This document shows positions 18,714 to 29,571 of a stretch of DNA of 29,571 nt, piece by piece. The position numbers and the translations under genes were made by a program. How positions within the stretch are numbered: position 1 is the first letter of the stretch; the number at the start of each line of letters is the position of its first letter. The stretch is from Bacteroidales bacterium. GTDB taxonomy: Bacteria > Bacteroidota > Bacteroidia > Bacteroidales > NBLH01. Under the pieces are notes generated by a model. It was not told the DNA's origin. It did no database searches and saw only the letters and a program-made list of their open reading frames with translations. The stretch lies in contig JARGGF010000001.1 of NCBI GenBank assembly GCA_029210905.1, positions 1 to 29,571 on the forward strand, given 5' to 3'.

Positions 18714-18944
18714 ATGAACAACTTGGTTAATAATCAACATGATACAAACAGGAGGAATTTCATAAAATCAATCATTAGGAACTTTTTACTTCTTGGACTT
18801 GCTTTTACCAGTATATTCCTGGTTTTCAAAGAAGATGATGGCGAAGAATGTAACTTTGATTTTGTATGCAGATCATGTAAAAAATCAAAAGGCTGTTCGC
18901 TCCCTGAAGCAAAAAATTATCGTTCAAATAAATTAAGGGTATAG
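18714..18944 (+). CDS. Small membrane-anchored Cys4 protein with twin-Arg-like motif
   Basis: NRRNFIK, a TM segment (FLLLGLAFTSIFLVF), then C-x5-C-x2-C-x5-C (CNFDFVCRSCKKSKGC). First gene of the operon; 3 nt gap to the next ATG. Confidence 0.72.
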   Translation: MNNLVNNQHDTNRRNFIKSIIRNFLLLGLAFTSIFLVFKEDDGEECNFDFVCRSCKKSKGCSLPEAKNYRSNKLRV

Positions 18945-18947
18945 GTT

Positions 18948-19523
18948 ATGGACGAAAATGTTAAGAGGATCGATCGTCGTGATTTTATCAACAGTGCCCT
19001 TCGCATTTCTGTTGGTATTGCAGTAGGAAGCATTGGTGGTGTTTTGCTTGCCAGAACCTCAAAAGACGATATGGTCTGGCAGCTTGATCCGGCTAAATGC
19101 GTACAATGTGGAAGGTGTGCAACCAGCTGTGTTTTAACACCTTCGGCAGTAAAATGTGTGCATGTATACAACATGTGTGGTTATTGCGATTTATGTGGTG
19201 GCTACTTCAGGCCCGAAGCTAAAAATTTAACCACAGCAGCTGAAAACCAACTTTGTCCAACAGCAGCCATAGAACGAAAATATATCGAAGACCCATTTTT
19301 TGAATACCACATTAATGAGGATTTGTGCATTGGATGCGGCAAATGTGTTGAAGGCTGTGGTTCGTTCGGAAACGGTTCCATGCAATTACAGGTTCGCCAT
19401 GATTTGTGCGTTAACTGCAACCAGTGTGCTATCGCAAGGGATTGTCCTGCTGATGCATTTAGCAGGGTATCAAGAGAAAGCCCTTATATTTTCAAAGGAT
19501 TTAGTACGGATGAAACTACATAA
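18948..19523 (+). CDS. Membrane-anchored polyferredoxin (about four [4Fe-4S]) with twin-Arg-like N-terminus
   Basis: DRRDFIN plus a hydrophobic helix; CVQCGRCATSC, CGYCDLC...LCP, CIGCGKCVEGC and CVNCNQCAIARDCP (17 Cys). Confidence 0.88.
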   Translation: MDENVKRIDRRDFINSALRISVGIAVGSIGGVLLARTSKDDMVWQLDPAKCVQCGRCATSCVLTPSAVKCVHVYNMCGYCDLCGGYFRPEAKNLTTAAENQLCPTAAIERKYIEDPFFEYHINEDLCIGCGKCVEGCGSFGNGSMQLQVRHDLCVNCNQCAIARDCPADAFSRVSRESPYIFKGFSTDETT

Positions 19524-19599: not shown

Positions 19600-20871
19600 A
19601 TGAACAGCAACAAAATAAAAATAATTGTTTTATTTATCCTCCTTGGAATTCAAACTGTTGCTATCTCGGGTCCCCGTTTCCCAATGCCCGAATTTGAGTC
19701 GGGGCATACACAGCCACCTACGCTCCAACCTGAACCAAGGTCAGACTTTTTCGAAATTTTTGATGCTTTTGTGCTGATTGCCGCATTGACAGTTATAACC
19801 TGGCTCATTCATAAAAAACGCTCAAGAAGAGGTGTTTTTTGGGTTTCAATTTTCTCCCTTCTTTATTTTGGATTTATTCGCGAAGGGTGTATTTGTTCTA
19901 TTGGGGCTATACAAAATATTACGCTTGCATTGTTCAACCCCTCTTATCAAATACCTGCTACTGTTATCGCTTTTTTTGTTATCCCATTGATTTACACCTT
20001 GTTCTATGGAAGAACCTTTTGCGCGGGAGTTTGTCCTTTGGGTGCTATCCAGGATATTTTTGCTTTGCAACCAGTAGATTTAAAAACCTGGGTACAAAAA
20101 ATCTTAGGCCTTATCCCTTTCATTTATCTGGGACTGGCTATTTTATATGCTGCCACCAGTACTGATTTTATTATTTGCCGGTACGACCCATTTGTGGGTA
20201 TTTTCAGGCTTGATGCTACCTTCTTTATGTTTAGCATTGGAGCACTTTTTATTATCACCTCAGTTTTTATTGCAAGGCCTTATTGTCGGTTTTTCTGCCC
20301 TTATGGTGTTCTTCTTAACTTAATTAGCAGGGTTTCTAAAAAACATGTTGAAATAACGCCCACGCATTGCATTAATTGCAGGTTATGTGAAAATTCTTGT
20401 CCATTTGGAGCCATTGAAAAACCAGTTCCGGTTAAAGAGATTGGGAATAAAAATACCGCCTTACGAAAATTCATGACCCTAAGTTTCATTATCCCACTTT
20501 TAATATTTATTGGAGGCTGGACCGGATCTCAGTTTCACGAAAACCTGGCCATGGTAAATGCCGATGTAAGACTGGCAAATGAAATATTAACCACTGATTT
20601 ACAGGATAAAACAATAGAGTTTTCAGAAGAAATAAAAGCTTTCAAAAGCTCCGGTAAAACTGCTGATGAAATTTATGCAAAAGCCAACGAAATTTTAGAT
20701 GATTTTTACATAGGTGGCTGGATACTAGGTGGATTTATTGGGCTGGTATTCGGAATAACCCTTGCAAGTGTTTCAATATTCAGATACAGAGAAGATTATA
20801 AAACAAATAAGGGAGAATGTTTCAGTTGTGCCAGGTGCTTTGATTATTGTCCGGTAAAGGTTGAAAGTTAA
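19600..20871 (+). CDS. NapH/MauN/NosR-C-like polytopic membrane Fe-S protein
   Basis: True start is the ATG at 19600; the track extension overlaps the upstream gene. CICSIGAIQ, FCAGVCPLG, YCRFFCPYG, CINCRLCENSCP and C-terminal CFSCARCFDYCP; multiple TMs. Confidence 0.88.
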   Translation: MNSNKIKIIVLFILLGIQTVAISGPRFPMPEFESGHTQPPTLQPEPRSDFFEIFDAFVLIAALTVITWLIHKKRSRRGVFWVSIFSLLYFGFIREGCICSIGAIQNITLALFNPSYQIPATVIAFFVIPLIYTLFYGRTFCAGVCPLGAIQDIFALQPVDLKTWVQKILGLIPFIYLGLAILYAATSTDFIICRYDPFVGIFRLDATFFMFSIGALFIITSVFIARPYCRFFCPYGVLLNLISRVSKKHVEITPTHCINCRLCENSCPFGAIEKPVPVKEIGNKNTALRKFMTLSFIIPLLIFIGGWTGSQFHENLAMVNADVRLANEILTTDLQDKTIEFSEEIKAFKSSGKTADEIYAKANEILDDFYIGGWILGGFIGLVFGITLASVSIFRYREDYKTNKGECFSCARCFDYCPVKVES

Positions 20872-20975: not shown

Positions 20976-22820
20976 ATGAAAATGCAGGAAAATAACCATA
21001 AAAAAGTAAACGTCCGGTTATGGAAAAGAATCGTGCTTATCGCAGCTGTTTTTTCCCTCTTAACCGCTTTATTGCTCATTGCCAATTACATACAACTAAA
21101 TAGGGCAGATCCGGTTAACACTAAAACCATCAATATGCTGGTGGAACGTCTCAATCAAAACCCTGATGATGATGCACTTAGGAATGAAATCAGGGAACTG
21201 GATTTATTGGCCCGTAAAGCATATTTTACCAATCAATGGCAAATAAGAACAGGTGCTTATCTTTTATTAATTGGAATAATTGTAGTGGTGGTGGCGCTGC
21301 AAATTATAAAATCAGCAAAGGGTATTGAACCTGAGATTCCTGCTGAAAAAGGTCTGGATTTTCTTTCAAATCAGGTAATTACCAGAAAATGGGTATCTAT
21401 TAGTGGTATTTCTTTGGTTGGAATTGCTCTTCTTTTTGCTTTTTTAACACATAACAAACTGGGTAATGCGATAACACAGGCATCTACCAGTACCCAGACT
21501 GACACTATCTCAAGCAAGCTAGCTGTAAACAGTAATAATACTATAGAAACCAGCACAATGGTTTCTGATTCTATGACTACTAGTGAAGTAGCTGAAAATC
21601 AAGATACTGCCACAAACGAAAATGATGTAGATACTACAACCAAAGTGTTATCTGAATATCCAACATATAAAGAAATTATACAGAATTTTCCTTGCTTTAG
21701 AGGTCCTGGAGGTAATGGAATTGCATATCAGAAAAATGTTCCTACCAGTTGGGATGGCGCTTCAGGTGCAAACATAAAATGGAAGTTTGCAGTTCCGCTT
21801 CCTGGTTTTAATTCACCTGTGGTTTGGGAAGACAAAGTATTTATTTCAGGAGCAAATGCAACAACAAGAGAGGTTTATTGTATTGATAGAAATACTGGTA
21901 AATTATTATGGAAGGCACCAGTTGTAAATGTACCTGGTTCTCCTGGGACTTCCCCCAAAGTTACAGACGATACCGGACATGCTGCCCCAACTTTGGCTGT
22001 TGATGGACGCAGGGTTTATGCGATTTTTTCAAACGGTGATATTATTGCCCTTGATATGGACGGGAACAAAGTCTGGGCCAGGAACCTGGGAACACCATCT
22101 AATCATTATGGACATTCATCTTCGCTGATGTTATTTAATAATATGGTTATCATACAATACGACCAAAAAAACTCACCAAAGGTGATGGCTTTATCAACAA
22201 CTACCGGAAAAACTATCTGGAGTACCGCCCGTGAAGTAAAAATTTCATGGGCATCACCAGTAATTGTATATACTGGCCAACAAACTGAAATCATCTTATC
22301 TTCAGATCCTTACGTGGCATCTTACAATCCATGGTCGGGTAAGGAAAACTGGCGCATCGACTGTATTTTTGGTGAGGTAGGCCCTTCAGTGGCTTATGCC
22401 GATGGCCTTGTGTTCGCTCAGAATGAGTATGCCAGATTGGTAGCCATTAAAATTGGCGAAAAACCAGAAATTTTGTGGGAGTCTGACGAATATTTATCTG
22501 ACGTTCCCAGCCCGGTTGCTACTAAAGATTATTTATTTTCAGCAACCAGCTATGGTGTAGTAGTTTGTTACGAAGCCAAAACATGCAAAAAATTATGGGA
22601 ACAAGAGTTCGGAAATGGTTTCTATTCATCGCCAATGATGGTAGGTGGAAGAATATATCTGTTTGATAGAAAAGGAGTTGCACATATTTTCTCGGCCAGC
22701 GGAACTTATAAAAGTCTTGGTGAACCAAAATTGGGTGAAGATGTGGTAAGCACCCCTGCTTTTGCTGATGGGCAATTGTTTATCAGGGGGTCGAAGAATT
22801 TATATTGTATTGGAAAATAA
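20976..22820 (+). CDS. Three-TM membrane protein with C-terminal BamB/PQQ-like beta-propeller
   Basis: Start refined to the ATG at 20976 (or 20982). Three hydrophobic helices, a Ser/Thr-rich linker, FPCFRGPGGNG, then repeated W-containing blades (IKWK, LLWK, KVWAR, TIWS, ENWR, ILWE, KLWE). Confidence 0.88.
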   Translation: MKMQENNHKKVNVRLWKRIVLIAAVFSLLTALLLIANYIQLNRADPVNTKTINMLVERLNQNPDDDALRNEIRELDLLARKAYFTNQWQIRTGAYLLLIGIIVVVVALQIIKSAKGIEPEIPAEKGLDFLSNQVITRKWVSISGISLVGIALLFAFLTHNKLGNAITQASTSTQTDTISSKLAVNSNNTIETSTMVSDSMTTSEVAENQDTATNENDVDTTTKVLSEYPTYKEIIQNFPCFRGPGGNGIAYQKNVPTSWDGASGANIKWKFAVPLPGFNSPVVWEDKVFISGANATTREVYCIDRNTGKLLWKAPVVNVPGSPGTSPKVTDDTGHAAPTLAVDGRRVYAIFSNGDIIALDMDGNKVWARNLGTPSNHYGHSSSLMLFNNMVIIQYDQKNSPKVMALSTTTGKTIWSTAREVKISWASPVIVYTGQQTEIILSSDPYVASYNPWSGKENWRIDCIFGEVGPSVAYADGLVFAQNEYARLVAIKIGEKPEILWESDEYLSDVPSPVATKDYLFSATSYGVVVCYEAKTCKKLWEQEFGNGFYSSPMMVGGRIYLFDRKGVAHIFSASGTYKSLGEPKLGEDVVSTPAFADGQLFIRGSKNLYCIGK

Positions 22821-22825
22821 AAAGC

Positions 22826-22902
22826 AGTGCCTTAAGTGCCCTAAAGTTTAAAGTACTTAGAGTTAAAATAGCAACAAAACTTAGCGCCTTTGCGCCTTTG
22901 CG
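22826..22902. repeat. Two adjacent microrepeats: AGTGCCT/AGTACTT family and CTTTGCG family
   Basis: agtgccttaagtgccctaaagtttaaagtacttagagtt (22826-22864); cttagcg 22880, ctttgcg 22888 and 22896 (period 8). Confidence 0.65.
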
Positions 22903-22910
22903 AGAAAGAA

Positions 22911-25259
22911 ATGAACGAATCAATCATAAATACCGTTGACCAAATAATAGCTGAAAAAGGGATAACTTCAAATGCGGTTATCCCTATTCTTCAGGCTATC
23001 CAGGAAAAATTTAATTATTTGCCCGAAGATGCCCTGAAAAGAGTGTGTGAAAATACAGACATCACTCAATCACAAATTACTGGGATATCAACTTTTTATT
23101 CACAATTCAGGCATAAGCCTGTAGGTGAGCATATTATAAAGGTTTGTGTTGGGACTGCCTGTCATGTAAAAGGTGCTTTACAGGTTTACGATTCATTCAA
23201 AAGAACGCTAAAACTTAAAGACAAAGAAGATACAGATAAGAACGGACTTTATACCATTGAAAAAGTAGCTTGCCTGGGCTGCTGCACCATTGCCCCTGTG
23301 GTTCAGATAGATAACATTACTTATGGCAATGTTGAAACAGAAAAAGTACCTGAAATACTTGACGACTTTATCTTAGCGAAAAATAATACAGAAACAAGTA
23401 TTGTTAAAACCTACCAAAATAACAGCCTGGTTCAGGGTGAAATAAGGGTAGGCCTGGGCTCCTGCTGTGTGGCAAGCGGAAGTGCCGATGTTAAAAACGA
23501 ATTAGAGAAAACATTGGCTAACAATAAGATACATGTGGATGTGAAACATGTTGGCTGTGTGGGAGTTTGCAATCAGGTGCCATTGCTGGAAATTCACAAA
23601 CCCAACATGGAACCTGTCTACTATGCCAAAATTAAGCCCGATGAAGTAAAACAAATTATCCAAACGCATTTTAGGGCAAACCGACTGATTGATCGTCTAA
23701 AAAATCAATTCTTTTTGTTTTTCGAAAACATGCTGGTGGAAAACCTTCCGCAAACTGTGAAAAGATATGCTTCAGATCATCGTGATACACCAATTGCAGA
23801 ATTCCTGAACGGACAGATTTCCATTGCCACCGAACATCGAGGCCAATTAAAACCATCTGATATTGAGGAGTATAAAAAAAAGGGAGGTTTCAATTCATTT
23901 CTAAAATGTATTAAAGAATATTCACAGGATCAGTTAATCGAAATCATCCGACAAAGTGGTTTAAAAGGCCGTGGAGGAGGAGGATTCCCTTCAGCAATAA
24001 AATGGCAGATGGTTAAAGATGCCAAAGCTGAAAAAAAATACATCATTTGCAATGGTGATGAAGGTGATCCGGGTGCATTTATGGATAGAATGTTGCTTGA
24101 ATCCTATCCCTATAGAGTAATAGAAGGGATGCTGATTGCGGCTTATGCAGTGGGGGCACAGGAAGGTATTTTCTACATCAGGGCTGAGTATCCACTTGCT
24201 GTTCAGCGAATTAATGAAGCTTTAGCAATATGCAGGCAAGAAAATTACCTTGGTAAAAATATTCAGGGAACTGATTTTTCAATCAATTTTAAAATATTCG
24301 AAGGTGCGGGTGCCTTTGTTTGTGGTGAAGAAACCGCATTGATTGCTTCTATTGAAGGAAAAAGAGGTTTGCCTTCCATGCGCCCACCCTACCCTGCTGA
24401 AAGTGGTTTGTGGGATGGGCCTACTTTAATAAATAATACAGAAACATTGGCGCTGGTTCCATGGATAGTAAGAAACGGCGCAGAAGCCTTCAATCAAATA
24501 GGAACTAAAAACAGCACGGGTACTAAAGTTTTTGCACTGGCAGGCAAAGTAAAACGGGGAGGGCTTATAGAAGTACCTATGGGGACAACGATACATCAGG
24601 TAATTGAAGAAATAGGTGGTGGCATTGCCAACGATAAACAATTTAAAGCAGTACAAATTGGCGGACCATCAGGAGGTTGTATCCCTGCCTCATTATCAGC
24701 CACTCCAATCGACTATGAATCGCTGGAAAAATTAGGAGCCATGATGGGTTCTGGCGGACTCATTGTTTTGGACGAAACAGATTGTATGGTTGATATTGCT
24801 AAGTATTTTCTGTCCTTTACCCAGGACCAAAGCTGTGGAAAATGCACTTTCTGCAGAATTGGGACTAAACGTATGCTTGAAATACTTGAAAAAATTACCA
24901 GAGGGCAAGGTGTTTTGAAAGATCTGGAAATACTTGAGCAATTAGCCGAAAGCACAAAAAAAGGAAGTATCTGCGGATTGGGAAGAACTGCTCCAAATCC
25001 AATTTTATCGACACTCCACTATTTTAGAGAGGAATATTTAGCACATATTAATGGCACTTGCCCTTCAGGAAAATGCACTGAATTAATCACATACAGTATT
25101 ACAGATGATTGCATCGGCTGTACCATTTGTGCGCAAAAATGCCCCTCGGATGCCATACCACTGAATCCTTATAAAAAGCATGAAATTATTAATGATAAAT
25201 GCATTAAGTGTGATGTTTGCAGGCAGGTTTGTCCGGAAAAAGCTGTATTAGTAAAATAA
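22911..25259 (+). CDS. NuoE-NuoF (HydC-HydB / BfuC-BfuB) fusion: NADH/FMN-binding Fe-S flavoprotein
   Basis: Start at the ATG at 22911. NuoE part CVGTACHVKG...ACLGCC; second thioredoxin-like domain GLGSCC...GCVGVC; GLKGRGGGGFP, CNGDEGDPGAFMDR, GAFVCGEETAL, GGPSGG, SCGKCTFCRIG...SICGLG, HINGTCPSGKC; C-terminal CIGCTICAQKCP and CIKCDVCRQVCP. Confidence 0.93.
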   Translation: MNESIINTVDQIIAEKGITSNAVIPILQAIQEKFNYLPEDALKRVCENTDITQSQITGISTFYSQFRHKPVGEHIIKVCVGTACHVKGALQVYDSFKRTLKLKDKEDTDKNGLYTIEKVACLGCCTIAPVVQIDNITYGNVETEKVPEILDDFILAKNNTETSIVKTYQNNSLVQGEIRVGLGSCCVASGSADVKNELEKTLANNKIHVDVKHVGCVGVCNQVPLLEIHKPNMEPVYYAKIKPDEVKQIIQTHFRANRLIDRLKNQFFLFFENMLVENLPQTVKRYASDHRDTPIAEFLNGQISIATEHRGQLKPSDIEEYKKKGGFNSFLKCIKEYSQDQLIEIIRQSGLKGRGGGGFPSAIKWQMVKDAKAEKKYIICNGDEGDPGAFMDRMLLESYPYRVIEGMLIAAYAVGAQEGIFYIRAEYPLAVQRINEALAICRQENYLGKNIQGTDFSINFKIFEGAGAFVCGEETALIASIEGKRGLPSMRPPYPAESGLWDGPTLINNTETLALVPWIVRNGAEAFNQIGTKNSTGTKVFALAGKVKRGGLIEVPMGTTIHQVIEEIGGGIANDKQFKAVQIGGPSGGCIPASLSATPIDYESLEKLGAMMGSGGLIVLDETDCMVDIAKYFLSFTQDQSCGKCTFCRIGTKRMLEILEKITRGQGVLKDLEILEQLAESTKKGSICGLGRTAPNPILSTLHYFREEYLAHINGTCPSGKCTELITYSITDDCIGCTICAQKCPSDAIPLNPYKKHEIINDKCIKCDVCRQVCPEKAVLVK

Positions 25260-25279: not shown

Positions 25280-26614
25280 ATGAGTTTTGAAATTGATAAT
25301 CAGACACTAAGAGATTTAAATATATTTCCAAATAAGAAGAAAGAACAATCCATTTTTGACTTATTCAAACAAACCAAAACAGTAGGTGGGCAAAATACAC
25401 TTATTCGTTTAATGAAAAATCCGCTGAACAATTTTGAACAACTTTCAGAAAGAGTTGAGGCCATCCGATATTTTCAAGACAATAATATTGCTTTTCATTT
25501 TATTGACAGAAACCTTGAATTTATTGAACATTACCTTAACTTAAACATGCCTGTGCTTCGAAAAGGGTGGATTTTTGCCCTATCCGATTGGTTAAGTGAT
25601 GTTATTTTACCTACAAATGAATATTTTGCAATTAAACGTGGCTTAAAGTTCTTACAGCAATTTTTACTTCAATTAAAGATTTATATTGAGAGTATTCAGC
25701 TTACGGAATATCCTGAATATTTTAATAGCGTCATAAATGAATTTAACTTGCTTAATACTAGCGATCTATTTAAATCTTTTTTAGCTCTCTCAGATAAAAA
25801 AATCAATCGCTTAAAATCAGTAAATAGCTTTGATAATTTAATACGTAAAAAGTCAAAAGACGATCTTCTAAAATTAATAAGCAAAATATACGAAATTGAT
25901 TCATTGAGAACTGTTGCTCTGGTATCGAAAGAAAACAATTATTGTCTGCCTGATTATACTCAAAACAACTCTTCATTATTGAATATCGACAACTTATTCC
26001 ATCCATTTGTTAATGAGCCAATTACTAATAGTTTTTCTTTCAATGAGCAAACAAATATGTGCTTTTTGACAGGTGCAAATATGGCTGGAAAATCAACCTT
26101 CTTAAAATCAGTCGGTTTGTGCTGTTACTTGGCACATTTAGGATTTCCTGTACCTGCAAGCAAAATGGAAACCAGCATTTATAGTGGTTTAATTACTGCT
26201 ATAAATCTATCAGATGATGTTACCAAAGGTTATAGTCATTTTTATTCTGAAGTAAAAAGAGTTAAGAATACAGCAATAAGTATTAAAGAAAAAAAGAAGA
26301 TCCTGGTTATTTTCGATGAACTGTTTAGAGGAACTAATGTAAAAGACGCCTATGATGCTTCATTAATGATAACTGCAGCATTTGCAAAAATTAAACACTG
26401 TGCATTTTTTATTTCGACCCATATAGTGGAAATTGCTGAGGAATTAAAAAATGAAGACAATATCATTTTCAAATATTTTGAATCGGAAGTGGTTAACGAA
26501 ATCCCCGTCTATAGTTACAAGTTAGCAAATGGAGTTTCTGCAGACAGGCATGGGCTGAGAATAGTTAAAAATGAAAAAATAGTTGAAATACTTGAGGGAA
26601 TAATTAATGAATAA
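25280..26614 (+). CDS. MutS-related ATPase (domain III remnant plus domain V only; no mismatch-binding domain)
   Basis: Start refined to the ATG at 25280. DNQTLRDLNIF, Walker A LTGANMAGKSTF, SHFYSEVKRV, Walker B IFDELFRGTN, FISTH. Confidence 0.88.
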   Translation: MSFEIDNQTLRDLNIFPNKKKEQSIFDLFKQTKTVGGQNTLIRLMKNPLNNFEQLSERVEAIRYFQDNNIAFHFIDRNLEFIEHYLNLNMPVLRKGWIFALSDWLSDVILPTNEYFAIKRGLKFLQQFLLQLKIYIESIQLTEYPEYFNSVINEFNLLNTSDLFKSFLALSDKKINRLKSVNSFDNLIRKKSKDDLLKLISKIYEIDSLRTVALVSKENNYCLPDYTQNNSSLLNIDNLFHPFVNEPITNSFSFNEQTNMCFLTGANMAGKSTFLKSVGLCCYLAHLGFPVPASKMETSIYSGLITAINLSDDVTKGYSHFYSEVKRVKNTAISIKEKKKILVIFDELFRGTNVKDAYDASLMITAAFAKIKHCAFFISTHIVEIAEELKNEDNIIFKYFESEVVNEIPVYSYKLANGVSADRHGLRIVKNEKIVEILEGIINE

Positions 26615-26679: not shown

Positions 26680-26717
26680 CACGGAGATTCACAGAGTCAA
26701 CATAGAGGTTCACAAAG
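26680..26717. repeat. CACAGAG half-array (4 units, 10/11/10 spacing)
   Basis: attg-cacggag 26680, cacagag 26690, catagag 26701, cacaaag 26711; same layout as 20930-20967, including the attg prefix. Confidence 0.8.
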
Positions 26718-26846
26718 TAAAAGCCAAAATTGACTCTATGAATGAAAATTATTGAAACCTAAACAATTAAAGAACGGAATTAAACGATTTATAAATGATT
26801 AGCTATATGTTTACTATTGTTAAACAAAATATCTAACACCTAACAA

Positions 26847-26883
26847 CTCTGTGAAACTCTGTGTTTCTCAGTGAAACTCAGTG
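26847..26883. repeat. CTCTGTG half-array (4 units, 10-bp spacing)
   Basis: ctctgtg 26847 and 26857; ctcagtg 26867 and 26877. Confidence 0.85.
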
Positions 26884-26920
26884 TAACAGATTGTATACCA
26901 ATGAAATAGCAATAAAACGA

Positions 26921-28486
26921 ATGATAAAACTCAAAATTAATAATATAGAAACACAGGTTGAAAATGGAACCTCCGTTCTAAAGGCCGCTGAACAAGCAGG
27001 TTTTAAAATACCTTCCATGTGCTTTAAAGAAGGTTATTCCAATCACCCTTCATGCATGGTGTGCATGGTAAAGGACAATAAAAATGGTAAGCTTTTCCCT
27101 TCCTGTGCCATTGCAGCAACCGAAGGTATGGATATTATTACTGATGATGATGAAGTAAAACAATCAAGAAAGGAAGCACTTGAGCTGTTGCTGAGCGACC
27201 ATGTGGGTGATTGCGAAGCTCCTTGCCAGCCATCATGTCCGGCCAACATGAATATTCCATTGATGAACCGCCTGATTGCCGAAGGAAAATTTGCCGAATC
27301 GCTAAAAGTAGTAAAAGAAGCTATTGCCCTTCCGCTAATTTTGGGCTACATCTGCCCTGCGCCATGCGAAAAGGCTTGTCGTCGCGGACAGATAGATAGC
27401 CCCGTTTCTATTTGTATATTAAAGAAATACGTGGCCGTGGAGGATCTCAAAAACGAAACATTTTACCTGCCCGAAAAACAAAAAAAATCAAATAAAAAAG
27501 TAGCCATCATCGGTTCAGGTCCGGGCGGATTGTCAGCTGCTTTTTATTTATTAAAACTAGGCCACGATTGTGTTATTTTCGATAAAAATGAAAAAGCCGG
27601 AGGAACCCTTCGCTACGAAATTCTTGAAAACCAATTGCCAAACGAGGCTATTGATAAAGAAGTGGAAGTGCTTATAAAATATGGAGCTAAATTTCAATTT
27701 AATACCAACATTACCAAAGAAATTTTTGAAAATGAGATAAGAAAAAATTTCGATGCAATTATTTTAGCTACAGGAAATTACGAAGGTTCAGTTATTGAAA
27801 ATTTTGGTTTTGAAAGTGGTAAATCGGGCATCAATATCAATAAAGATACCTACGAAACCAGTATTCCCGGAATATTTGCCTGTGGAAATATTATCCGTTC
27901 CAGGCGAATGGCCATAAACTCTGTGGCGCAGGGTAAAATTGCAGCTGAATCGGCTCATGCATTTTTGAATGGACAAACACCTGAAGCTAAACATCGTATG
28001 TTCAACTCAAAATTTGCCAAACTTCTTGAAGAAGAGTTTGAGGAATATTTGAAAGAATCAATACCTGAAAACAGGGTTGAACTAGAAAATGGCAAAATGG
28101 GCGATTTTTCAATGGAAGAAGCCATGTTGGAAGCCAAACGCTGCCTGCATTGCGACTGCCGCAAAATTGATAATTGCAAATTGCGCATTTTCTCAGATGA
28201 ATACAGCGCAGATAGAAAAAAATTCGATTTTGGTGAACGAAAAATCATCAAAAAATATGATCAGCATGAATTAGTAATTTACGAATCGGAAAAATGCATC
28301 AGGTGCAATTTATGCGTTGATATCACTATGAAAAACAGTGAGTTAACAGGTTTGTCAAGCATTGGCAGGGGATTCACAGTTGAAATAAATATACCATTTA
28401 ATCAATTATTGAGTGCCGCATTAACTAAAACAGCCATTGATTGTGTTGAATCGTGCCCGACGGGGGCGTTGGCTTTTAAAAAATAG
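26921..28486 (+). CDS. HydA/NuoG-N-terminal Fe-S protein with an inserted, internally truncated GltD/NfnL-like FAD domain (BfuA-like)
   Basis: Start at the ATG at 26921. [2Fe-2S] CFKE...SCMVC...SCA; LLLSDHVGDCEAPC; CPANMNIP...GYICPAPCEKACRR; KVAIIGSGPGGLSAA; TSIPGIFACG; EAKRCLHCDC...CKLR; KCIRCNLC; CVESCPTGAL. Confidence 0.9.
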   Translation: MIKLKINNIETQVENGTSVLKAAEQAGFKIPSMCFKEGYSNHPSCMVCMVKDNKNGKLFPSCAIAATEGMDIITDDDEVKQSRKEALELLLSDHVGDCEAPCQPSCPANMNIPLMNRLIAEGKFAESLKVVKEAIALPLILGYICPAPCEKACRRGQIDSPVSICILKKYVAVEDLKNETFYLPEKQKKSNKKVAIIGSGPGGLSAAFYLLKLGHDCVIFDKNEKAGGTLRYEILENQLPNEAIDKEVEVLIKYGAKFQFNTNITKEIFENEIRKNFDAIILATGNYEGSVIENFGFESGKSGININKDTYETSIPGIFACGNIIRSRRMAINSVAQGKIAAESAHAFLNGQTPEAKHRMFNSKFAKLLEEEFEEYLKESIPENRVELENGKMGDFSMEEAMLEAKRCLHCDCRKIDNCKLRIFSDEYSADRKKFDFGERKIIKKYDQHELVIYESEKCIRCNLCVDITMKNSELTGLSSIGRGFTVEINIPFNQLLSAALTKTAIDCVESCPTGALAFKK

Positions 28487-28639: not shown

Positions 28640-29571
28640 ATGAAAAAGATACTTGCACTGTTATTTCTAATCTTTCCTTTAATTTCAAAAGCCCAAAGTT
28701 CCACCTGCTGGCCATCCTTTAGGGGTAATTCAGCAATGACTGGCACAACTAACATTAAATTATCCAACTCGCCAGAACTGCTTTGGTCTTTTAAAACAGG
28801 TGATGGAATTAAATCATCGCCAATTTATTGCAATAAAAATATATTTATTGGTTCAAACGATGGATTTGTTTATTCGATTTCATCAAAGGGAAAGTTAAAC
28901 TGGAAATATAAAACAACAGCTTCTATAGAAGCCGCTCCACTTTATCTTAATCATATTCTTTATGTCAGTTCACTTGAAGGTATTTTATATTCCATTGATG
29001 CCTTATCCGGCAAATTAAAATGGAAATATGCTACTGAAGGTCAGATTTCAGGCTCTTCAACCTGGGTATTTTCGCCAGATAAAAAAAGTAAATACGTTCT
29101 TACTGGCAGCTACGATTATTTTTTGCATGCAGTAGACATGAATACAGGAAAAGCAGTCTGGAAGTATGAAGCTGACAATTACATCAATGGAGCACCCTGT
29201 ACCAATGGAAAAGTAGCACTTTTTGGTGGCTGCGATGGCTATCTGCATATTGTTGATGTTCAGACAGGTAAGGCAGAAAAACTGGATATTGGAACCTATA
29301 TAGCTTCTTCTGCGGCAATCAGCGACAGCCTGTGTTTTTTTGGCAATTACGATGGTGATTTTTATTGTGCAGATTTTGCGAACAAAAAAATCATATGGAA
29401 ACATACAGGATCAGGTCCGTTTTTAGCTTCTCCTGCGGTGTTTGGAAATAAAGTAATTATTGGTTCACAGGACAAAACCATATATTGTTTTAATAAGACA
29501 GATGGAAAAGTATTGTGGAAGTTTAAAACCCTGGGTAAAGTCGATGGATCCGCAATAATATCAGGAGATAA
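28640..29571 (+). CDS. Secreted BamB/PQQ-like beta-propeller protein (partial, runs off the right edge; absent from the ORF track)
   Basis: Hand translation: MKKILALLFLIFPLISKAQSSTCWPSFRGNSAMTG...LLWSFKTGDGIKSSP...LNWKYKT...LKWKYATEG...GSYDYFLHAVD...AVWKYEADNYINGAP...FGGCDGYLHIVD...; no stop before 29571. Confidence 0.9.
   Translation, partial: MKKILALLFLIFPLISKAQSSTCWPSFRGNSAMTGTTNIKLSNSPELLWSFKTGDGIKSSPIYCNKNIFIGSNDGFVYSISSKGKLNWKYKTTASIEAAPLYLNHILYVSSLEGILYSIDALSGKLKWKYATEGQISGSSTWVFSPDKKSKYVLTGSYDYFLHAVDMNTGKAVWKYEADNYINGAPCTNGKVALFGGCDGYLHIVDVQTGKAEKLDIGTYIASSAAISDSLCFFGNYDGDFYCADFANKKIIWKHTGSGPFLASPAVFGNKVIIGSQDKTIYCFNKTDGKVLWKFKTLGKVDGSAIISGD

Follow-up and report, generated by a model that had tools for sequence, protein, structure and literature searches.

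A single-chain BfuC-BfuB protein of Bacteroidales, the probable core of a Bfu-family flavin/iron-sulfur enzyme, encoded within a conserved gene cluster

The enzymes of the Bfu family represent a major and poorly understood class of energy-coupling systems in anaerobes, the mechanism of which is thought to need a swing of the C1 domain. As the family was described by Schut et al. 2022 (PMC9304861), BfuB comprises a flavin mononucleotide (FMN)-binding 51K domain, an SLBB domain, the NuoF-type [4Fe-4S] region and a ferredoxin-type domain, and BfuC is NuoE-like. A His residue at the B2 site is present in 1550 of 1558 BfuB sequences and absent from non-bifurcating homologues, and the fifth B2 position is variable across the family (PMC9304861). 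In the current view, B2 is a Cys3-His zinc site, and the enzymes from S. ovata and C. saccharolyticus differ at the B5 site despite similar motifs (PMC11829005). In the solved Bfu enzymes it is the B3/B4 domain that faces ferredoxin; T. sibiricus NfnABC shows a swing of the C1 domain by 45-90 degrees between FMN and B3/B4, and deletion of one residue from the 11-residue hinge of NfnC (Y58-K68) lowered bifurcation by 70% (PMC12018979). In NiFe-HydABCSL, the C-terminal domain of HydC (C1) is held by the N-terminal domain of HydB, and both become mobile on FMN and NADH binding (PMC8880783). Here, a protein that joins the C and B subunits in one chain is described from a 29,571-nucleotide stretch of a Bacteroidales genome (contig JARGGF010000001.1, positions 1 to 29,571; hereafter the window). 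As judged from its sequence, this protein is probably, at roughly 0.6, the complete BfuBC core of a Bfu-family (HydABC/NfnABC-type) flavin/iron-sulfur enzyme.

The fused gene (CB) and the parts of its product were placed as follows.

22911..25259, + strand: BfuC-BfuB single-chain fusion of 782 residues (P0001), from the translation, Pfam, PDB matches and AlphaFold
22911..23369, + strand: BfuC/NuoE-like part, residues 1-153, with a four-helix N-terminal domain, hinge and thioredoxin-like C1 domain (PF01257 at residues 10-152)
23370..23435, + strand: fusion linker, residues ~154-175, polar, from the alignment, motif spacing and AlphaFold
23436..23696, + strand: second PF01257 (thioredoxin-like) stretch, aligning to residues 2-86 of NfnB and StnB, with four invariant Cys
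23946..24677, + strand: FMN/NAD(H) domain (Complex1_51K, residues 346-517) and SLBB domain (residues 541-589), from Pfam and reference motifs
24783..25046, + strand: B1 [4Fe-4S] four-helix bundle (C642, C645, C648, C688), interleaved with B2 (C625, T663, H712)
25044..25256, + strand: B2 His/Cys residues (H712, C717, C722) and C-terminal 2x[4Fe-4S] ferredoxin domain (B3/B4)

An alternative start, TTG at 22890, is possible upstream of this frame, but the start at residue 1 fits, given that fused homologues are 776-787 residues long and align from residue 1 of the 782-residue protein. Matches above cut-off were obtained with each of PF01512, PF10531, PF10589, PF14697/PF00037 and PF01257. The Pfam model 2Fe-2S_thioredx (E value 1.8e-49) matched two stretches, the best at residues 10-152 and the second weaker. 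Complex1_51K was found at residues 346-517 (2.4e-44), SLBB at 541-589, NADH_4Fe-4S, the NuoF [4Fe-4S] region, at 628-712 (8e-32) and the 4Fe-4S dicluster of a 2x[4Fe-4S] ferredoxin domain at 730-778. The initial annotation of the window had recognized all of these modules, from the NuoE-type domain to the ferredoxin tail, in a single reading frame; Pfam and the motifs bear this out, every motif that it quoted lies where it had been placed, and the match goes well past anything that chance would produce. An AlphaFold model of the whole chain gave a predicted local distance difference test score (pLDDT) of 87.2 and a predicted template-modelling score of 0.88.

Conservation of the putative cofactor ligands was assessed in an alignment of 81 fused sequences, namely the window protein and 80 homologues from related genome loci. 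The C1 ligands C79/C84/C121/C125, the B5 residues C185/C186/C216/C220 (motif GLGSCC...GCVGVC), the B1 ligands C642/C645/C648/C688 (SCGKCTFC followed by C688), the B2 ligands C625/H712/C717/C722 and the eight Cys of B3/B4, which lie in two CxxCxxCxxxCP motifs at the C-terminal tail, are all invariant or at least 98% conserved. Within B2, C625 is supplied by DETDCMVD, and the motif AHINGTCPSGKC corresponds to H712-x4-C717-P-x3-C722. Position by position, this site matches C438/C476/H525/C531/C536 of NiFe-HydB (7t2r_B). Its fifth position, residue 663, varies (T in 29 sequences, C in 27, R in 13 and S in 10), which fits the current view of B2 as a Cys3-His zinc site; the Thr of the window protein is also found in StnB and T. 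sibiricus NfnB. The B5 set consists of three of the four canonical positions plus an extra Cys seen in StnB/NfnB, and the site may hold either a [2Fe-2S] cluster or zinc. The FMN/NAD motifs are GDPGAFMDR (residues 385-393), GAGAFVCGEE (465-474) and GGPSGG (584-589). A distant fused relative from a metagenome (P0128, 784 residues) has a degenerate FMN/NAD site, with NGNDGDPSSFAGR and GEHAFVCNEE in place of NGDEGDPGAFMDR and GAGAFVCGEE, and may have lost flavin binding.

To judge from these domains and motifs, the fused protein is a BfuC-BfuB (HydC-HydB type) core and not the NuoEF of complex I. The Bfu-family domains, the B2 His with its Cys partners and an adjoining BfuA homologue were all found. 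Among PDB chains, the highest bit scores were obtained with NfnB of C. saccharolyticus (690), NfnB of T. sibiricus (676) and StnB of S. ovata (672), followed by several HydB chains (608-617); the best NuoF, Thermus Nqo1, scored 361. Superposition of the AlphaFold model on C. saccharolyticus NfnB (9bp5_B) with Foldseek gave a target template-modelling score of 0.96 and a root mean square deviation of 2.8 Å. By contrast, the NCBIfam equivalog model for NuoF (TIGR01959) gave 460.3 bits against a cut-off of 558.65, the NuoE models also remained below their cut-offs, and no nuo genes were found near the fused gene in the window.

For the core region (residues 300-715), one tree was built with FastTree and one with IQ-TREE. 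The references, taken from annotated plasmid or replicon records, comprised S. meliloti NuoF, two FdsB proteins, a cyanobacterial HoxF, a Parabacteroides HydB encoded beside an [FeFe]-hydrogenase and the B subunit of the A. noterae Stn cluster; the paralogues of the source genome were included as well. In both trees the window protein fell inside the Bfu-type group, apart from NuoF, FdsB and a short 387-residue form. Clustering with enzymes that act on NADH only, the outcome named beforehand as refuting a bifurcating-type module, thus did not occur, and the earlier assignment to such a module rather than to respiratory NuoEF is upheld. IQ-TREE recovered a clade of 21 rows, 20 of them fused, with a Shimodaira-Hasegawa-like approximate likelihood ratio support of 96. 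FastTree placed a Stn-like clade as sister to this fused clade (support 0.895); that node is collapsed by IQ-TREE, and the sister relation was dropped as a settled result.

The hinge of the BfuC part, Y63-xQFRxxPxG-72, is conserved, with Q65 present in 79 of 81 sequences and F66, R67 and G72 in all 81, and its length equals that of the NfnC hinge. The linker that follows the BfuC part behaves differently: it is hypervariable, with a mean identity to the window residue of 0.29-0.38 in the 81-sequence alignment, yet nearly constant in length, given that in 77 of 79 sequences the last C1 Cys and GxGxC are 54-56 residues apart. The linker is also predicted to be disordered, with pLDDT below 50 at residues 160-171. 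Given these properties, the two mobile domains appear to be tethered in tandem in a manner compatible with the gating swing. A disordered tether of ~20 residues would join the C terminus of the C1 domain to the B5-containing N-terminal domain of BfuB, and such a flexible leash would fix a 1:1 stoichiometry of C and B while still permitting the swing. With the C1 domain tethered at both ends throughout a large natural clade, the mobility that gating requires becomes open to testing, and the fused form offers a simpler, two-gene (CB + A) expression system.

The cognate third subunit is encoded downstream of CB.

26921..28486, + strand: cognate BfuA-like subunit, short form, with an N-terminal [2Fe-2S] region, a GltD-like flavin adenine dinucleotide (FAD) part and NuoG-type [4Fe-4S] clusters

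This protein (541 residues as listed, 521 from the likely ATG) matched the Pfam models Fer2_4, Fer4_20 and Fer4_Nqo3. Against NfnA (9bov_A, 1178 residues), its residues 20-312 align to 2-293 and its residues 297-538 to 426-672. It is thus without the ~132 residues that form the NADPH-binding domain of NfnA (294-425) and without everything past residue 672, the Fdh-like half. The full-length A. noterae A subunit (1195 residues) has Pyr_redox and Molybdopterin domains that are missing from the short protein, in which, unlike that subunit, no PF00070 match was found. The NADPH domain and the Fdh-like half are absent from A in 68 of the 71 related loci that could be scored, and a few A subunits are entirely without a flavin domain. 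What every A retains is the chain of clusters that leads to B1/FMN in the solved enzymes; A would accordingly be mainly a wire, with the site of the third reaction elsewhere. Given that the partner A is without the NADPH domain, the third substrate cannot be NADP(H).

Several variants of the A subunit were seen. At one locus from the same order (L101:9797-10768, genome G329), A is only 323 residues long, with Fer2_4, Fer4_20 and C-terminal clusters and without an FAD-binding domain, in an otherwise complete cluster; the A subunit of L070 looks similar to this flavin-less form. In a Lentisphaerota representative of 995 residues (P0127/P0274), C, B and A form a triple fusion in which a minimal A is reduced to Fer2_4 and NADH-G_4Fe-4S_3, that is, a [2Fe-2S] and a His-[4Fe-4S] region. 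The C-terminal FAD motif of the short A in the window reads G-N (gifacgniirs) where NfnA has G-D (gvfaggdavtg), and FAD binding by the short protein may be altered.

The genes around CB and A recur together. Neighbors were counted in the 80 related loci, the denominators below being the loci with enough flanking DNA. The conserved order is a Tat (twin-arginine translocation)-type ferredoxin, a NapH-like membrane protein, a beta-propeller, CB, short A and a second propeller; in the window the flanking genes are as follows.

18714..19523, + strand: two small Cys-rich proteins with RRxF N termini, 76 and 191 residues, the latter a NapG-like 4Fe-4S polyferredoxin
19600..20871, + strand: NapH-like membrane polyferredoxin (Pfam Fer4_5; NCBIfam napH subfamily, below cut-off)
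20976..22820, + strand: PQQ_2/BamB-like beta-propeller with N-terminal membrane helices, from Pfam
25281..26614, + strand: MutS domain III/V-like ATPase gene, between CB and A, from Pfam and NCBIfam, with weak KamC-like and MutS matches
28640..29569, + strand: second PQQ_2-like beta-propeller, cut by the contig end, from Pfam

An NfnA/StnC-like short A lies directly downstream of CB in 69 of 71 loci and the first propeller (PQQ_2) directly upstream in 63 of 64, preceded by the NapH-like gene in 57 of 61. The second propeller is present in 54 of 59 loci, and the 191-residue polyferredoxin precedes the NapH-like gene in 57 of 80, a denominator that includes short loci. Genes for a family-4 glycosyltransferase (52/80), an ATP-binding cassette (ABC) ATPase (52/80) and an FtsX-type permease of ~1100 residues (49/80) usually follow the second propeller, and are upstream in two Planctomycetota loci (L087/L088). 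The window ends before that region, which can be seen at L009:15305-20614 and at ~50 other loci.

No equivalent of the MutS-like gene (~444 residues from the likely ATG at 25281) was found at the 80 related loci, and the gene is not part of the conserved cluster. Insertions between CB and A seem to be tolerated. In 53 of 69 loci the A-gene match starts within 150 nucleotides of the CB end, often abutting CB, and it lies farther away in the other 16, with a gap of 612-1365 nucleotides in 12 of these 16. At the Mariniphaga anaerophila locus (L057:12559-13641), this gap holds a gene for a secreted protein of 360 residues that by eye resembles SGNH-type hydrolases. In the window, heptamer-like repeats (cacagag / ctctgtg, ctcagtg) at 26680-26720 and 26845-26885 flank the spacer that lies after the MutS-like gene and before A.

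From analogy with the solved relatives, the fused protein is most likely the cytoplasmic NADH/ferredoxin head of a previously undescribed, membrane-linked Bfu-type complex. Its predicted cofactors would be FMN with an NAD(H) site, the B1 [4Fe-4S], the C1 [2Fe-2S], the Cys3-His (zinc) site B2, the B5 site and the ferredoxin-facing B3/B4 pair. By the same analogy, NADH would be oxidized and single electrons exchanged with ferredoxin, and a third electron path would leave via the B1 cluster into the A subunit, whose most likely role, in its shortened form lacking the NADPH site, is that of an iron-sulfur wire. The NapH-like membrane polyferredoxin, the Tat-type NapG-like ferredoxin and the two exported or anchored beta-propellers could then provide a path through the membrane, with a quinone or a periplasmic acceptor or donor as candidates for the third substrate. 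Taken as a whole, the picture of a membrane-spanning Bfu member, in which an A wire poor in flavin and a NapGH-like relay couple NADH and ferredoxin to a propeller-linked periplasmic reaction or the quinone pool, with the tether as a gating adaptation, is put forward tentatively and at slightly less than an even chance. What the sequences establish is the domain content, the conserved ligands, the relatedness and the conserved gene cluster, from which bifurcation itself, the partners and the direction of electron flow are inferred. If the picture holds, the cluster may carry chemistry of the bifurcation type to the membrane or periplasm.

Several observations weigh against this interpretation. 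The link of CB-A to the NapH-like and propeller proteins is suggested by conserved gene order, and in the window itself the MutS-like gene separates CB from A. The tree representatives were drawn from the 150 best matches and are thus a biased sample, and IQ-TREE gives no resolved placement of the fused clade relative to the Stn/Nfn and Hyd lineages. Furthermore, PGAFMDR, GAFVCGEE and GGPSGG are present in cyanobacterial HoxF as well, which has neither the Cys3-His site nor the tail. Cyanobacterial HoxF is not known to bifurcate. The contrast with complex I drawn in the initial annotation stands for Sinorhizobium meliloti NuoF, which has PGTFKDR and GAYICGEE and no ferredoxin tail. Given that the three motifs are common to HoxF, it is only by the ferredoxin tail and the Cys3-His site of B2 that the Bfu type can be told apart within the reference set.

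The fusion is widespread. A word-indexed protein search returned more than 120 clusters of fused proteins of 776-803 residues at 66-97% identity, from Bacteroidales, Marinifilum, Ancylomarina and Salinivirgaceae, and where they are named at all, the names are for the most part generic (subunit E, subunit F, "proton-conducting membrane transporter"). When one genome per species was scanned, at least 553 matching stretches were obtained, of which the best 80 all carry full-length fused genes, from Bacteroidales families (Prolixibacteraceae, Tenuifilaceae and others) and Planctomycetota. Mariniphaga anaerophila DSM 26910 (L057), Maribellus luteus XSD2 (L056), Perlabentimonas gracilis (L013) and Marinifilum flexuosum (P0043) are among the carriers in culture. 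An exhaustive search of representatives added fused clusters at 41-51% identity, some of them named Lentisphaerota or Phycisphaerae. The spread is patchy, with a full-length fused copy in 9 of 30 close relatives and in none of a sample of 300 genomes from across the phylum. To judge from the trees, the fusion marks one well-supported clade of Bacteroidales, Planctomycetota and Lentisphaerota. It also arose more than once, given that other fused representatives lie outside the 21-row clade in the IQ-TREE tree, with the Stn-like reference (P0126) or with a HydB paralogue (P0134). Such independent fusions in other lineages, together with the numbers above, contradict the earlier view of the C-B fusion as a less usual architecture.

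Two kinds of apparent fused match were set aside. In Acetoanaerobium noterae, a match with 99% coverage arose when tblastn read through a stop codon, the C and B genes being separate; in close relatives, matches marked "1 TAA" were unfused pairs, and the one examined, from the same genus, was a HydCBA operon. In A. noterae, the stop codon of the C gene (175 residues) is followed at once by the ATG of the B gene (576 residues) in the same frame, so that the two genes are separate and contiguous, and the origin of a fusion is easy to picture.

Full-text literature searches, the limited coverage of which gives no proof of absence, returned nothing on a C-B fusion or on this operon. Neither PMC9304861 nor PMC11406978 contains the word "fused" or "fusion", the Stn and Nfn papers are silent on a C-B fusion, and a search for NapH, NuoF and propellers together led to unrelated papers. 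The fused form is abundant in databases under generic names, and the fusion alone is not surprising. The form goes unmentioned in the searchable Bfu, Stn and Nfn papers, and of more interest is the operon type that it marks, for which the fused gene serves as a marker of a widespread cluster in Bacteroidales, Planctomycetota and Lentisphaerota of sediments, bioreactors and groundwater.

Other assignments of the core were weighed against these data. The label HydC-HydB in the initial annotation points to the diaphorase of an electron-bifurcating [FeFe]-hydrogenase, and the protein does share its domain set and 46-58% identity with HydB of T. kivui, A. woodii and T. maritima. The source genome, moreover, encodes [FeFe]-hydrogenases: three further NuoF-like genes, on contigs C352, C338 and C397 of the source genome G000 (L002-L004), each follow their own separate NuoE-like gene and precede a gene with an H-cluster domain. 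Two of these operons carry a full bifurcating-type HydB (634 and 647 residues) and the third a short 387-residue NuoF-like subunit, which has PGTFKDR and GAYVCGEE and is of the non-bifurcating type. It is these operons that speak against a hydrogenase role for the fused protein. Each of the three hydA genes directly follows its own unfused C and B genes, none of the three paralogues exceeds 49% identity to the window protein, all lie in other clades, and no Fe_hyd_lg_C domain was found in the window cluster or in the 80 related loci. With NfnB/StnB as the nearest solved structures, the hydrogenase label is not retained, and this reading is very improbable. Equally hard to credit is a role as the missing NADH-oxidizing N-module of the 11-subunit Bacteroidota NDH-1. 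The domain content would suit it, being that of NuoE and NuoF with the short A as the N terminus of NuoG, but the fused gene never adjoins nuo genes in the 80 loci, is far too patchy in the phylum and is also found in Planctomycetota and Lentisphaerota.

A closer relation is that to the Stn/NfnABC-type NADH-dependent ferredoxin:NADP+ transhydrogenases, of which B and C would then be parts. NfnB and StnB are the nearest solved structures, the C-B-A gene order is that of the stn cluster of Acetoanaerobium noterae, an organism listed as Stn-positive (PMC7483475), and over the N-terminal 290 residues A is by eye ~50% identical to NfnA. It is the loss of the NADPH-binding domain and the Fdh-like half from nearly all A subunits, and of any flavin domain from a few, that makes a transhydrogenase improbable. 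The alternative of a non-bifurcating NADH (or ferredoxin) dehydrogenase head that feeds the NapH-like module via the short A, its ferredoxin domain being an alternative entry or a relic, is unlikely, though less so. Single-chain NuoE-NuoF proteins do occur in the non-bifurcating HoxF and in the beta subunit of M. extorquens FDH1, with which the model aligns over ~700 columns, and a high-potential third partner such as a quinone would make ferredoxin coupling thermodynamically unneeded. However, the Bfu-specific parts, namely the B2 Cys3-His site, B3/B4 and the hinge, show no variation within a deep clade, an argument for their being in use, and known non-bifurcating relatives are without such parts (PMC9304861 and the reference set).

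In comparison with known systems, the fused protein most resembles NfnB plus NfnC (C. saccharolyticus, 9bov/9bp5; T. sibiricus, 9n5u) and S. ovata StnABC (8oh5), in which the NuoF-like subunit is named StnB and the NuoE-like subunit StnA. Domain order, the C1/B1/B2/B3/B4 ligands and the FMN/NAD loops are the same, as are the C-B-A gene order and the hinge length of the C part. Identity to NfnB/StnB is ~50% over the whole B chain by Foldseek and, by eye, nearer 60% in the core from about residue 300. The differences are that C and B form one chain here, that B5, the motif of which is depleted in StnB/NfnB (PMC7483475), has four Cys here, arranged as a CC pair plus CxxxC, and that A is without the NADPH domain and the Fdh-like half. 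The same BfuBC core and signature residues are found in HydB plus HydC of HydABC (T. maritima, 7p5h; A. woodii, 7q4v; T. kivui, 8a6t) and in NiFe-HydABCSL (7t2r), with E values of 1e-181 to 1e-184; here, however, there is no hydrogenase partner, and the scores are lower than those to the Nfn/Stn B subunits.

HoxF of the NAD-reducing [NiFe]-hydrogenase (5xf9), described as a fusion of HydC and HydB (PMC8880783), and the beta subunit of Methylorubrum extorquens FDH1 (7vw6/7e5z) also combine NuoE-like and NuoF-like parts in one polypeptide, and they superpose on the model over ~700 columns. Both are non-bifurcating and about 24% identical to the fused protein (24-25% for 5xf9), which is not accompanied by hox genes; the B2 Cys3-His site and the 2x[4Fe-4S] domain at the C terminus, both present here, are missing from the FdsB and cyanobacterial HoxF references. 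With NuoE and NuoF of complex I, the fused protein shares a homologous FMN/NADH site, an N3-type [4Fe-4S] and an N1a-type [2Fe-2S] cluster; it differs from complex I NuoF in having PGAFMDR and GAFVCGEE in place of PGTFKDR and GAYICGEE, and in carrying the additional B5, B2 and B3/B4 modules.

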